64,000 nucleotides of DNA from Escherichia coli (lineage in GTDB: Bacteria > Pseudomonadota > Gammaproteobacteria > Enterobacterales > Enterobacteriaceae). The position numbers were made by a program, and so were the translations under genes. Position 1 is the first letter of the stretch; each line of letters opens with the position of its first letter. Positions 58,848 to 64,000 of the stretch are shown here, piece by piece. The stretch lies in the NCBI RefSeq assembly GCF_013122565.1, contig NZ_CP053258.1, one strand, 5' to 3'. The notes under the pieces were generated by a model. The model made no database searches. It had not been told where the DNA came from and was given only the letters and a program-made list of their open reading frames with translations.

Positions 58848-59477
58848 ATGATTCGGGTAGTGCTGGTGGATGACCATGTGGTGGTGCGCTCTGGCTTCGC
58901 ACAATTACTCTCTCTGGAAGACGATCTGGAGGTCATTGGTCAGTACAGTAGTGCCGCGCAGGCATGGTCGGCATTAATCCGTGATGACGTCAATGTTGCC
59001 GTCATTGATATTGCCATGCCGGACGAAAACGGCCTCAGTTTGCTTAAGCGCCTGCGTGCACAAAAACCGCAATTTCGCGCCATTATTCTTAGCATTTATG
59101 ACGCGCCAACCTTTGTGCAAAGCGCGCTGGATGCCGGTGCCAGCGGGTATTTAACCAAACGCTGTGGGCCGGAAGAGTTAGTGCAGGCGGTGCGCTCGGT
59201 CGGGCTGGGCGGGCATTATCTCTGTGCCGATGCGATTCGGGCTTTACGCGGCGGCGGGCAACCCGCCCAGGCGCTGGAAATTCTCACCCCACGAGAACGT
59301 GAAGTGTTTGATTTACTGGTCAAAGGAGACAGCGTTAAAGAGATCGCCTTTAAACTCGAACTCAGTCATAAAACGGTACATGTGCATCGCGCCAATGTGC
59401 TGGGAAAACTGAACTGCCATAGCACCATTGAACTGGTACATTTTGCGCTCGACCACCATCTGCTGGCGGGGCATTAA
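58848..59477 (+). CDS. NarL/FixJ-family response regulator, UhpA paralogue
   Basis: 209-aa ORF MIRVVLVDDHVVVRSGFAQLLSLEDDLEVIG...: receiver domain plus LuxR-type HTH (LTPREREVFDLLVKGDSVKEIAFKLELSHKTVHVHRANVLGKL); similar to but clearly distinct from UhpA as I remember it; stop overlaps the kinase start (TAATG). Confidence 0.85.
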   Translation: MIRVVLVDDHVVVRSGFAQLLSLEDDLEVIGQYSSAAQAWSALIRDDVNVAVIDIAMPDENGLSLLKRLRAQKPQFRAIILSIYDAPTFVQSALDAGASGYLTKRCGPEELVQAVRSVGLGGHYLCADAIRALRGGGQPAQALEILTPREREVFDLLVKGDSVKEIAFKLELSHKTVHVHRANVLGKLNCHSTIELVHFALDHHLLAGH

Positions 59478-61018
59478 TGTCGCGCAATCTTCGTCATTGG
59501 GTGATTTCGCTGTTTATTGTGCTGGCCTGGGGAACCGGCTGGCTGATGCTGTGGACGCTCAGTTTTTATCTGACCAATAACGGTCAACAGGCGGCGCTGT
59601 TTCTCCCGCAGGGAGTTTATCTCGCCCTTGTTATTTTGCTCTCTCGCCGCTACTGGCCTGCGTTGGTACTCCCCCCTTTGCTGATGATGTTCTGGCTCCA
59701 TAGTGAACAGCTATTGAACGGTTATCTCATGCTGGCAACGCCGGTTATTAGCCTGTTTCCTGCCCTCCTTGCGCAAAACTTCTGGCACCGTTTTCCACTT
59801 TACTGGCAGCGTCTGACGTTGCTGTTAGCTACTGTCACGGCAGCTTCATTGTTGAATACCGCCCTGCTCTCCCCTTTTATGTCAGGCCCAATAATGCTGC
59901 CGGGTTTGACCTCATTTACCGGCGGCGTATTACTGACGCCGTTTGTCTATCTTATCTTTGAGTTTCTGCGCCAGCAGCATCGCTACCAGCTCCTGGGACT
60001 CGATACGCATAATCCCCCCTTGCGTACCTCTTTAATCATCTGGTGTAGCCTGTTTTTTATCATTGGTATCGGCACTCAGATGGTGCTGTCACCTGAAATT
60101 GAGCGTCTGCTGTTGATCGTGGTCTTTTTGCCCAATGTGGTGATGGCGTGGAAATTTGGCTGGCAAGGTGGCGTACTCTCCGGGCTTTTGGGCAGCATGA
60201 TGATCACCATCGCCCGCCAGATTGGCGTGGGCTTTAGTAACCTGGTGGAGCTGGAGATTTTCCTCGCGACCCAGGCCTTGCTGGGAATTGGCCTGGGCAT
60301 TGCCATCAGTCGCCAGCAACATCTGGCGCTAAACCTGCACCATTACCGACAACGGCTGGAGGCCGAGCTGGCAGCGCGGCGGGCATTGGCGGAAAAGTTG
60401 ATCCACACCGAGGAGGACACGCGAAAAAACCTGGCGCGAGAGCTGCACGACGAAATCGGTCAGAACATCACCGCCATTCAGATCCAGTCGCAACTGGTGA
60501 AGCGGGCGCGTGATCCGGCGCAAATTCAATCCGCAGCCAGCCAAATCAATGAGCTCGCCCGCCGCATTCATCTCTCCACCCGCCAATTGCTGCGCCAGTT
60601 GCGGCCTCCCGCGCTTGATGAACTGACATTTCGCGAAGCGTTGTTGCATCTGATTAATGAATTTGCCTTTGGTGAACGCGGCATTCATTGCCAGTTTGCC
60701 TATCAACTGAACTCCACACCAGAAAACGAAACGGTGCGCTTTACCTTGTATCGGTTATTGCAGGAGTTGCTCAATAACGTCTGTAAACACGCCGAAGCCA
60801 GCGAAGTGACGATTATCCTGCGCCAGCAGGGAGAGGTATTGCATCTGGAGGTCAGCGACAACGGTGTGGGGATCGCCAGCGGGAAAATGGCCGGATTTGG
60901 CATTCAGGGGATGCGTGAGCGCGTCAGCGCCCTGGGCGGCGACTTAACGCTCGAAAAACAGCACGGCACGCGGGTAATTGTTAACTTGCCCACATTTTTG
61001 CAACAAATCGCCGGATAA
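59477..61018 (+). CDS. sensor histidine kinase with MASE1 membrane domain, UhpB paralogue
   Basis: 513-aa ORF: N-terminal multi-TM domain, HisKA_3 motif (LARELHDEIGQNITAI), C-terminal HATPase (G-boxes DNGVGI, GFGIQGMRER); architecture and length like UhpB (500 aa). Confidence 0.85.
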   Translation: MSRNLRHWVISLFIVLAWGTGWLMLWTLSFYLTNNGQQAALFLPQGVYLALVILLSRRYWPALVLPPLLMMFWLHSEQLLNGYLMLATPVISLFPALLAQNFWHRFPLYWQRLTLLLATVTAASLLNTALLSPFMSGPIMLPGLTSFTGGVLLTPFVYLIFEFLRQQHRYQLLGLDTHNPPLRTSLIIWCSLFFIIGIGTQMVLSPEIERLLLIVVFLPNVVMAWKFGWQGGVLSGLLGSMMITIARQIGVGFSNLVELEIFLATQALLGIGLGIAISRQQHLALNLHHYRQRLEAELAARRALAEKLIHTEEDTRKNLARELHDEIGQNITAIQIQSQLVKRARDPAQIQSAASQINELARRIHLSTRQLLRQLRPPALDELTFREALLHLINEFAFGERGIHCQFAYQLNSTPENETVRFTLYRLLQELLNNVCKHAEASEVTIILRQQGEVLHLEVSDNGVGIASGKMAGFGIQGMRERVSALGGDLTLEKQHGTRVIVNLPTFLQQIAG

Positions 61019-61090
61019 CCAGGAAAAAGTCTTAGGTATCCCGGATTTTCTCTCATCCCCTTTCACTTTCATTTTCATATAGTCAGCAAC

Positions 61091-62407: not shown

Positions 62408-63435
62408 AAATGACCTTTACCTCTACTCTGATTGCTTCTGCCGTTGCGCTGGCGACTTTAACGGGTGCCGCGCAGGCAAAAGGCCGGCTGGTGGTCTATT
62501 GCAGCGCCACCAATGAAATGTGTGAGGCCGAAACCAAAGCGTTTGGCGAGAAATATGATGTAAAAACCTCGTTTATCCGCAACGGTTCCGGAAGCACCCT
62601 GGCAAAAGTCGATGCTGAAAAGAAAAACCCCCAGGCTGACGTCTGGTACGGCGGCACTTTAGACCCGCAATCGCAGGCTGGCGAGATGGGCCTGCTACAG
62701 GCGTATAAATCCCCTACCCTTGAGCAGATCATGGAGAAATTCCGCGATCCGGCAAAAGTGAAAGGGAATCTGTCCTCTGCCGTTTATGTGGGGATCCTCG
62801 GTTTTGGCGTAAACACCGATCGTCTGAAAGAGAAAAACCTGCCGGTGCCGAAGTGCTGGAAAGATCTCACCAAACCGGAATATAAAGGCGAAATTCAAAT
62901 TGCCGATCCGCAAAGTTCCGGTACTGCCTACACCGCCCTGGCTACTTTTGCGCAGCTGTGGGGGGAAGATCAGGCCTTTGATTATCTAAAACAACTGAAC
63001 GCCAACGTCTCTCAGTACACCAAATCAGGCATAGCCCCGGCACGTAACGCCGCCCGTGGCGAAACGGCGATTGGTATTGGCTTCCTGCATGACTACTCGC
63101 TGGAAAAAGAACAGGGCGCGCCGCTGGAGTTGATTTCCCCGTGTGAAGGTACGGGCTACGAAATTGGCGGCGTCAGCATTCTGAAAGGCGCGCGCAACCT
63201 CGACAACGCCAAACTGTTTGTGGACTGGGTATTATCAAAAGAAGCTCAGGAACTGGCGTGGAAGAAAGGGAAGTCTTATCAGATCCTGACCAATACCACC
63301 GCCGAAACGTCGCCAAATTCGCTGAAGCTCGACGACCTGAAATTAATCAACTACGACATGGATAAATATGGTTCCACGGATGTTCGTAAGGCATTGATTA
63401 ATAAATGGGTCAGCGAAGTGAAGATGGGTAAATAA
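62404..63435 (+). CDS. afuA: periplasmic substrate-binding protein of AfuA/FbpA family (sugar-phosphate or iron ABC importer)
   Basis: Start ATG at 62404 (MKMTFTSTLIASAVALATLTGAAQA signal peptide) gives 343 aa; the track ORF 62077-63435 carries a spurious N-terminal extension overlapping the previous gene. Confidence 0.8.
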   Translation: MKMTFTSTLIASAVALATLTGAAQAKGRLVVYCSATNEMCEAETKAFGEKYDVKTSFIRNGSGSTLAKVDAEKKNPQADVWYGGTLDPQSQAGEMGLLQAYKSPTLEQIMEKFRDPAKVKGNLSSAVYVGILGFGVNTDRLKEKNLPVPKCWKDLTKPEYKGEIQIADPQSSGTAYTALATFAQLWGEDQAFDYLKQLNANVSQYTKSGIAPARNAARGETAIGIGFLHDYSLEKEQGAPLELISPCEGTGYEIGGVSILKGARNLDNAKLFVDWVLSKEAQELAWKKGKSYQILTNTTAETSPNSLKLDDLKLINYDMDKYGSTDVRKALINKWVSEVKMGK

Positions 63436-63503
63436 ACCCGCATTAGGCGTATTTGCCGGGTGCAGCACAAACGCCTGCCCCGGCCAACCATACCGGAACT
63501 ACT

Positions 63504-64000
63504 ATGTCACAGACACTTGCACTCCATCCCGTGAAAAAGCGGGATGCGATTTTCCTTTGGGTTTTGCTGGGCTGGCTGGCATTTATACTGTTGCCGAGCT
63601 GGAGCCTCGATTATGGCCTGCTGGAGTCCACGAGTGATGAGATCCTCGAGGCTTATGGCTGGTCGCATTTTAATATCAGCTGGCTGTGGTATTTGTTACC
63701 GAGTCTGTTGCTGGTTCGCCCGTTTCGTGAGGTCACACGCGAACAGCGTAGTCGTCATTATTTTGATGCCAGCTGGGCATTGCTCTGTATGGCGTTTATC
63801 GTCATCAGCGCCACCGTGGCTGGACGCGGTTTAGGCTACGCCGCCATCGTGCTGTTTGTTGAACTAGGCGCGATTATGACGCTGGCCTTAACCCGCCTCG
63901 AATGGCTGGGCGGCGACCGCTTCGTGATCGGCTCACTGATTGCGATTGTGGCGCTGATTGGCATTTTTATCGTCTGGCCGAGCATCGCCATTTTTATCCC
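63504..64000 (+). CDS. afuB: ABC transporter permease (AfuB/FbpB-like), N-terminal fragment continuing past window end
   Basis: Open frame from ATG 63504 (MSQTLALHPVKKRDAIFLWVLLGWLAFILLPSWSLDYGLL...) with no stop to position 64000; hydrophobic helices. Not in the ORF track because it is truncated. Confidence 0.7.
   Translation, partial: MSQTLALHPVKKRDAIFLWVLLGWLAFILLPSWSLDYGLLESTSDEILEAYGWSHFNISWLWYLLPSLLLVRPFREVTREQRSRHYFDASWALLCMAFIVISATVAGRGLGYAAIVLFVELGAIMTLALTRLEWLGGDRFVIGSLIAIVALIGIFIVWPSIAIFI

Follow-up and report, generated by a model that had tools for sequence, protein, structure and literature searches.

Gene content and identity of the locus

The end of a 64,000-nucleotide stretch of Escherichia coli DNA (contig NZ_CP053258.1 of RefSeq assembly GCF_013122565.1; hereafter the window) holds a gene array in which a UhpABC-like sensing system adjoins an AfuABC-type ATP-binding cassette (ABC) importer. 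Five open reading frames (ORFs) lie at 58848–64000 on the + strand (ORF list for 54000–64000), following the minus-strand tauDCBA genes, which end at 58545. They are, in order, fusR, fusK, z0461, afuA and the 5' part of afuB, and the array of regulator, kinase, major facilitator superfamily (MFS) protein, AfuA and start of AfuB described in an earlier note on this DNA is thus found at the coordinates claimed. Here we consider the six-gene module that these genes form with afuC, and a predicted promoter in front of z0461 that appears to tie the sensing genes to the importer.

The locus is a known and published one, namely O-island 20 (OI-20) of E. coli O157:H7, whose genes are named fusR (Z0463), fusK (Z0462), z0461 and afuABC (Z0460–Z0458). 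The Z numbers were mapped by gene order and by RefSeq protein accessions common with strain EDL933. The RefSeq proteins of the matched genome include WP_000089287.1 (Z0462), WP_000543352.1 (Z0461) and WP_000084161.1 (Z0459), while the supplementary tables of an EDL933 RNA sequencing (RNA-seq) study annotate Z0463 as UhpA (fusR), Z0462 as fusK, Z0461 as UhpC-like and Z0459 as afuB. Since the same RefSeq proteins appear in the EDL933 tables and under the window matches, this locus and the published FusR/FusK/Z0461/AfuABC island are one. Likewise, Sit et al. 2015 (PMC4546632) place afuABC on OI-20, adjoining FusKR. By megablast, the window DNA is 99.0–99.2% identical to O157:H7 strains EC4115 and EDL933 (99.0% to EDL933 DNA over 59477–61090, which covers fusK and the spacer behind it), and the closest genome is that of the baboon isolate PapM-32-1 (99.6–99.8% identity). 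The window comes from a non-O157 lineage; the chromosomal slot, between tauA and frmR, and the gene order are the same as in O157:H7.

Of 5426 complete E. coli genomes, 519 (∼10%) have the full locus by megablast, on the chromosome every time. The carriers fall into three allele classes (at least 99%, 95–99% and 90–95% identity) and include O55:H7, O145:H28 and a sequence type 69 (ST69) strain, together with isolates from pig, chicken, otter and baboon without an enterohemorrhagic E. coli (EHEC) serotype label. Most E. coli genomes match only the first 38–138 bp beside tauA in the same search, and the island's left edge is within about 38–138 bp of that gene. The earlier note did not place the locus in K-12, and K-12 MG1655 is indeed without it: yaiO-yaiX(IS2)-yaiP-ykiC-yaiS occupy the slot between frmR and tauA. 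Island-positive E. coli genomes also have the canonical uhpC (two places per record).

Sensing genes

The first gene, fusR (Z0463 ortholog; 58848..59477, + strand), encodes a UhpA-like response regulator of the NarL/FixJ family (209 aa, receiver Asp54). Its top NCBIfam match is UhpA, at 193 bits and under the equivalog cut-off of 258, and its identity to UhpA of E. coli is 48%, with Asp54 aligned. The second, fusK (Z0462 ortholog; 59477..61018, + strand), encodes a UhpB-like histidine kinase of 513 aa with the Pfam domains MASE1 (5e-60), HisKA_3 and HATPase_c. UhpB is its top NCBIfam match (377 bits, under the cut-off of 408), and the two proteins are 34% identical over their full length. The H-box His324 aligns with His313 of UhpB, which we take to be the H-box histidine of that kinase (ELHDEIGQ in FusK vs ELHDDIGQ in UhpB). 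The stop of fusR and the start of fusK overlap in CATTAATGTCG at 59475–59479.

The third gene, z0461 (61091..62407, + strand), encodes a UhpC-like MFS protein of 438 aa, a putative external co-sensor of hexose phosphates. Its NCBIfam score for the UhpC subfamily clears the cut-off (588 > 564), the one top match of the three sensing proteins to do so, and that for UhpT falls short (214 bits vs a cut-off of 497); its identity is 53% to UhpC and 29% to UhpT. Two of its arginines, Arg39 and Arg259, are invariant in 80 orthologs and common to UhpC and UhpT. In the organophosphate:phosphate antiporter family these two arginines bind the phosphate group, and we take Arg46 and Arg275 of UhpT to be phosphate ligands. 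An organophosphate ligand would thus fit Z0461 better than the neutral sugar fucose.

With the regulator and the kinase under their equivalog cut-offs, the two are therefore paralogs rather than equivalogs of UhpA and UhpB. This agrees with the description of the sensing trio as divergent UhpA/B/C paralogs in the earlier note, whose TAATG and ATGA couplings are also present, at 59475–59479 and, between z0461 and afuA, at 62404–62407.

The annotated ATG start of z0461 at 61091 (as in EC4115) is not conserved, and most genera have ACG at that place. The conserved start is the ATG at 61103, preceded by a ribosome-binding GGAG at 61093–61096. RefSeq uses the start equivalent to 61103 in PapM-32-1, and start annotations differ between strains.

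The AfuABC importer

Following z0461, and overlapping its stop codon (CAATGAAA at 62404–62407), afuA (Z0460 ortholog; 62404..63435, + strand) encodes a periplasmic sugar-phosphate binding protein of 343 aa. Its similarity to the sugar-phosphate-bound AfuA structures 4R72–4R75 is very strong (E = 1e-168), as it is to the closely related solved chain 8X1A_B (E = 2e-173), while the ferric-iron binding proteins FbpA and HitA are remote (about 1e-11 to 1e-13). Residues H205, D206 and E229 of Actinobacillus pleuropneumoniae AfuA, defined by Sit et al. 2015 (PMC4546632) as the sugar-phosphate motif, are present as H229, D230 and E253, so that the H/D/E sugar motif is kept. No Fur box above background was found in the three intergenic regions; the best match (12/19) is at a level attained 65 times on a single strand of the window.

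The 5' part of afuB (Z0459 ortholog; 63504..64000, + strand), an ABC permease gene, is cut by the end of the window. In near-identical genomes afuB is 2079 bp long and is followed by afuC (annotated fbpC) and then frmR, with afuC lying beyond the window; the search for afuB and afuC past the window end that the earlier note had proposed thus recovers both genes.

AfuABC has been described as a binding-protein-dependent transporter specific for glucose 6-phosphate (G6P), fructose 6-phosphate (F6P) and sedoheptulose 7-phosphate (S7P), and not as an iron transporter (Sit et al. 2015, PMC4546632). The A. pleuropneumoniae and Citrobacter rodentium orthologs bind and transport G6P and F6P, and bind S7P, as shown for both by isothermal titration calorimetry (ITC) and complementation of a uhpT mutant; the C. 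rodentium system, which is >83% identical to that of EHEC, contributes to colonization and transmission (PMC4546632). The sequence evidence supports identification of the window transporter as an AfuABC-type sugar-phosphate importer rather than an iron system. As the earlier note had it, the transporter next to the sensing genes is of the AfuABC type, with the 1e-168 AfuA match and no uhpT-like neighbor. With the H/D/E motif kept, FbpA remote and no Fur box, the possibility it had raised against this, that the binding protein would cluster with FbpA and be regulated by Fur, therefore falls away.

The afuA–afuB spacer (63436–63503) is 68 bp long here and 53–191 bp across genera, and could permit differential expression of afuA and afuBC. 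Terminator-like hairpins lie just inside the start of afuB (63525–63546 and 63565–63581) and are not above chance.

Conservation of gene order across genera

Species-representative genomes were scanned with AfuA, which gave relatives in 348 stretches, and the best 80 loci were retained. These come from >30 Enterobacterales genera, among them Citrobacter, Klebsiella, Raoultella, Serratia, Enterobacter, Lelliottia, Leclercia, Buttiauxella, Rahnella, Erwinia, Pantoea, Yersinia, Brenneria and Ewingella, and their flanking genes were located by tblastn with the window proteins. The order regulator–kinase–MFS–AfuA–AfuB–AfuC was found in all of these best 80 loci wherever flanking DNA exists, and no uhpT adjacent to the module was seen in the window or in any of them. 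The same six-gene order is present in Photobacterium profundum and in a Vibrio metoecus/cholerae-type contig (L083), where the flanks are napABC and an HD-GYP gene. This order across genera argues that the module is an old, co-inherited unit and not an EHEC-specific acquisition.

Spacing within the module is also conserved. The regulator and kinase genes overlap across loci, and the MFS–afuA junction is tight (−4 to +60 bp, with ∼160 bp only in Yersinia), while the kinase–MFS spacer is about 63–84 bp in nearly all loci and 72 bp in the window (fusK–z0461). Enlarged kinase–MFS spacers were seen once each in Raoultella planticola (L013, 266 bp) and in a Buttiauxella metagenome-assembled genome (L074, 401 bp); the insertion in the former displaces the palindrome described below.

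Predicted promoter upstream of z0461

The end of fusK and the spacer behind it hold a set of elements, all on the + strand, that together resemble the uhpT promoter. The first is a stretch of putative regulatory DNA within the 3' end of fusK (60974..61006), which comprises a CRP-like site, TGTTAACTTGCCCACA (60979–60994), plus TTTGCAACAA. The family form of the site, TGTTAACyTGCCCACA, falls in the last kinase codons, and its center precedes the −10 by 91.5 bp, just as the CAP site of uhpT does. Third codon positions at 60974–61006 are almost invariant in 79 orthologs (mean entropy 0.15 vs 1.19 bits at other conserved codons; Mann-Whitney p = 5e-5), and such near-invariant synonymous sites point to constraint on the DNA beyond coding. 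Next comes a 17-bp palindrome, CCAGGAAAAAGTCTTAG (61019..61035), a putative activator site for the UhpA-like FusR with its center at about −63. Its family consensus is CYAGGAAnnnnTCYTRG, and the perfect form CCAGGAATAATTCCTGG occurs in Buttiauxella and Erwinia. The palindrome is present in 80 of 82 loci, including those of Vibrio and Photobacterium, always 32–33 bp upstream of TCTCAT, and the pattern matches once in the 64-kb window (0.16 expected). The third element, TCTCATCC (61051..61058), lies at about −39, corresponds to TCTCAGG in the weak downstream UhpA-binding region of the uhpT promoter, and is conserved in at least 90% of sequences; in 75 loci it precedes the −10 by 27 bp. The last is TATAGT (61078..61083), the −10 hexamer of the predicted z0461-afuABC promoter, which is kept as TAnAnT at a fixed distance and has no good −35; downstream of it, the loci have the GGAG ribosome-binding sequence and then ATG (61103 in the window). 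The sequence places the likely z0461 transcription start near 61090.

The spacing of these elements is rigid. The CRP-like site and the palindrome are a fixed 40 bp apart in 78 of 79 loci, and by alignment and motif scan the full arrangement of CRP-like site, 40 bp, palindrome, 32 bp, TCTCAT, 27 bp and −10 holds in 75–80 of 82 loci. The K-12-type uhpT promoter has its CAP site, 17-mer, TCTCA and −10 at 5180, 5219, 5252 and 5279, for which the window equivalents are 60979, 61019, 61051 and 61078. The distances from CAP site to TCTCA (72 bp) and from TCTCA to −10 (27 bp) are identical in the two promoters, and the uhpT 17-mer CTAAGAAATTTTCCAGG, at the equivalent position, has 11 of the 13 specified consensus bases. 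In an ungapped alignment over 111 bp the uhpT and window promoters are 42% identical, vs 26.5 ± 4.2% for shuffles, a value that none of 2000 shuffles reached. If the start is taken seven bases after the −10, the palindrome falls at about −63 and the CRP-like site comes to lie at −103.5; in uhpT, we take the UhpA "−64 element" and the CAP site to occupy these positions.

In the uhpT promoter UhpA occupies adjacent strong and weak sites and CRP a single upstream site. Given the matching geometry and the ungapped similarity, the z0461 promoter appears to be a homolog of the UhpA/CAP-activated uhpT promoter, with z0461-afuABC as its operon, and the search for a regulated promoter that the earlier note had called for thus leads to a predicted uhpT-type promoter in front of z0461-afuABC. 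A promoter in the MFS–afuA spacer was considered and rejected: most genera have no such spacer or a very short one, and the longer spacers of Vibrio and Photobacterium are without the palindrome, which puts the conserved promoter in front of the MFS gene. Terminator-like hairpins were no commoner than in shuffles, and we claim no terminator between fusK and z0461.

Comparison with related systems

The canonical UhpABC-UhpT system has the same trio logic (NarL-type regulator, MASE1 kinase lacking a periplasmic domain, MFS receptor) and the same A-B-C order, in which the A and B genes overlap as they do in the window. The promoter geometry is also shared with uhpT (CAP site, palindrome near −64, TCTCA at −39, a −10 and a poor −35). 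The two differ in their output, which is the ATP-driven AfuABC importer in the window and the antiporter UhpT in the canonical system, and, unlike in uhp, the regulated promoter of the window lies between the kinase and MFS genes, which places the receptor gene in the induced operon.

VCA0685–VCA0687 of Vibrio cholerae are reportedly induced by hexose-6-phosphate via the UhpA homolog VCA0682. The VCA0682–VCA0687 cluster, as represented by the V. metoecus/cholerae-type contig, has the identical six-gene order in a different bacterial order, Vibrionales. Protein identity to the window is 62% for the regulator, 42% for the kinase, 52% for the MFS protein and 76% for AfuA, and the same palindrome (CTAGGAAATATTCCTAG) and a CRP-like element lie upstream of the MFS gene. 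The MFS–afuA spacer is 112 bp in this Vibrio locus, vs a 4-bp overlap in E. coli. This orthologous cluster is reported to be an ABC uptake system for hexose-6-phosphate (Moisi et al. 2013, J Bacteriol 195:1800). Every gene of the island has been named and studied, and the same wiring has been characterized in V. cholerae.

The AfuABC systems of A. pleuropneumoniae and other Pasteurellaceae have a binding protein ∼75–80% identical to that of the window, with the same H/D/E motif and the same afuA-afuB-afuC order. In Gallibacterium anatis (L085), also of the Pasteurellaceae, afuABC stands alone, without the three sensing genes; a class B acid phosphatase gene directly follows it there. The ferric importers FbpABC and SfuABC differ from the window system in that the similarity of AfuA to them is remote and no Fur box rises above background.

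The published system at the same locus is FusKR/Z0461/AfuABC of O157:H7 (Pacheco et al. 2012, Nature 492:113; PMC4546632). In the O157:H7 literature FusKR, associated with fucose and repression of the enterocyte effacement locus (LEE), and AfuABC, associated with uptake, are neighbors, whereas the sequence described here argues for one circuit.

Region upstream of fusR and other features of the window

The tauA–fusR intergenic region (58546..58847, + strand) likely contains the fusRK promoter. Promoter scan and alignment predict a −35, TTGCCA, at 58790–58795 and a −10, CATGAT, at 58812–58817, both on the + strand, and a further conserved element, TGTTAC...CA, lies on the same strand at 58757–58772. 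All three are conserved in 76 aligned orthologous upstream regions whose neighbor genes differ. The TGTTAC element, ∼60 bp upstream of the predicted start, is a possible class I CRP site. A generic scan for promoters and terminators gave the fusR promoter candidate as its sole find. A palindrome, GGCAAATTATTGCC, at 58739–58752 resembles the half-sites of the uhpT promoter, GGCAAAAC; it is kept in the closest relatives only and was left uninterpreted.

No Rfam family reached its gathering threshold anywhere in the 64-kb window. GC content drops to 0.32 at 53500–53999, between a large autotransporter gene of the ehaB/yaiT type and hemB. The autotransporter gene is annotated as frameshifted in O157 EC4115 and as intact in PapM-32-1.

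Proposed circuit and alternative explanations

What the sequence establishes is the gene content, the homologies, and the conservation of synteny, promoter geometry and ligand-binding residues. The wiring of a UhpA-like regulator to z0461-afuABC, which the earlier note had proposed for the regulator and the AfuABC importer, is well supported at the sequence level by the synteny and the uhpT-type promoter. From here we infer the inducer in E. coli, the role of Z0461 as co-sensor, the FusR binding site, activation rather than repression by FusR, and dependence on CRP. Taken as a whole, we consider it somewhat probable that the six genes form two transcription units, fusR-fusK and z0461-afuA-afuB-afuC, which make up a UhpABC paralog with an AfuABC output and act as a sugar-phosphate activation circuit.

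In such a circuit, Z0461 would detect periplasmic hexose and heptose phosphates (G6P, F6P, S7P) and would switch FusK, itself lacking a periplasmic sensor domain, into kinase mode, with autophosphorylation on His324, and FusK would in turn phosphorylate FusR on Asp54. Phospho-FusR would bind the 17-bp palindrome near −63, and probably also TCTCA near −39, and FusR would activate z0461-afuABC together with cAMP-CRP, whose site near −103.5 falls within the end of fusK. AfuA would capture the sugar phosphate and AfuBC would import it. Basal z0461 expression may come from fusRK read-through, and, with the sensor gene lying within the induced operon, the circuit would therefore show positive feedback.

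Several points weigh against this proposal. The regulator and the kinase are under the UhpA and UhpB equivalog cut-offs, so that their signal specificity could have diverged. Sensing of hexose phosphates conflicts with the published fucose signal and the published repression of z0461: secondary sources on Pacheco et al. 2012 report autophosphorylation of FusK in response to L-fucose, and they have FusR repressing ler, z0461 and the fuc genes. In the literature searched, no paper links E. coli FusKR to G6P or other sugar phosphates or to afuABC regulation, and Sit et al. 2015 note the adjacency only. As for the promoter, the left half of the CRP-like site is weak (TGTTA, not TGTGA) and coding constraint partly confounds the conservation of the site; the −63 and −103.5 coordinates, like the start itself, derive from the −10 hexamer only.

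The chief alternative follows the published account, in which FusK is a direct sensor of L-fucose, FusR represses ler (LEE), z0461 and the fuc genes, and Z0461 aids fucose import, the adjacency of afuABC reflecting nothing but a shared carbohydrate island. Reviews and later papers are consistent on fucose-stimulated autophosphorylation of FusK, on phosphotransfer from FusK to FusR and on binding of FusR to the ler promoter, and the same kind of secondary source reports that Z0461 is needed for optimal growth on fucose. Up-regulation of fusKR and z0461 in rectal contents rich in fucose speaks for this account, and in the EDL933 RNA-seq study the up-regulation of all four of afuB, z0461, fusK and fusR in the gut contents of cattle gives weak support to the proposed circuit. 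Set against the fucose account, however, is a module inseparable from afuABC in marine Vibrionaceae and in >30 genera; many of the organisms that have it are plant-associated or environmental and lack LEE, and its E. coli carriers include the isolates without an EHEC serotype label. The promoter is the positional homolog of the UhpA/CAP-activated uhpT promoter, with the palindrome upstream of the −35 in the position of an activator, and kinases of the UhpB type, with MASE1 and without a periplasmic domain, depend on UhpC. The Z0461 arginines common to UhpT and UhpC, which we take to be phosphate-binding, also sit poorly with fucose, a neutral sugar. We therefore regard the fucose account, taken as the whole explanation, as rather unlikely.

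Parts of the two accounts may nevertheless be true together. The fucose and sugar-phosphate views are compatible, and the regulator may have gained extra targets such as ler. We hold it to be about an even call that in E. coli and other Enterobacterales the main role of FusK/FusR/Z0461 is to sense hexose and heptose phosphates outside the cell, in the manner of UhpABC, and to activate z0461-afuABC via a CRP-assisted homolog of the uhpT promoter, with the fucose and LEE effects of O157:H7 being secondary cross-regulation, or an indirect metabolic effect, of a widespread circuit for nutrient uptake. The activator-type site upstream of the −35 and the V. cholerae precedent point in the opposite direction to the published repression.

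A second alternative makes Z0461 a working transporter rather than a sensor, either a UhpT-like hexose-phosphate:phosphate antiporter or a fucose carrier, in which case FusK would sense something else. UhpC itself reportedly retains weak G6P transport, z0461 sits downstream of a uhpT-like promoter and hence in the "UhpT position" of the operon, and the EHEC papers describe Z0461 as a transporter. Its closeness to the receptor UhpC rather than to UhpT, in both cut-offs and identity, argues otherwise, and a second carrier would be redundant beside a translationally coupled, high-affinity ABC importer of the same substrates; we think this explanation quite improbable. Lastly, that the ABC system is a Fur-regulated ferric-iron importer of the FbpABC/SfuABC type, as the RefSeq name of the ATPase (fbpC, "ferric ABC transporter") and an older annotation as iron(III)-binding protein would have it, is scarcely credible and effectively refuted by the Fur scan at background (12/19), the remote similarity to FbpA (∼1e-11 vs 1e-168 for AfuA, with the H/D/E motif intact) and the demonstration by Sit et al. 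(PMC4546632) that AfuABC binds and transports G6P and F6P, not iron.

Implications

FusKR is a much-cited case of a pathogen sensing fucose liberated by the microbiota to time its virulence. Reviews have called it specific to O157:H7 or possibly acquired from Enterococcus faecalis; both statements are corrected here, since ∼10% of complete E. coli genomes have it, and so do >30 Enterobacterales genera and members of the Vibrionaceae. The strict conservation of the six genes, the homology with the uhpT promoter and the distribution of the module may be new to the literature searched, and the sequence data suggest an ancient, widespread unit for the sensing and import of sugar phosphates. If this is true, the E. 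coli system should respond to G6P and F6P and control AfuABC, and the fucose model would need to be re-examined.

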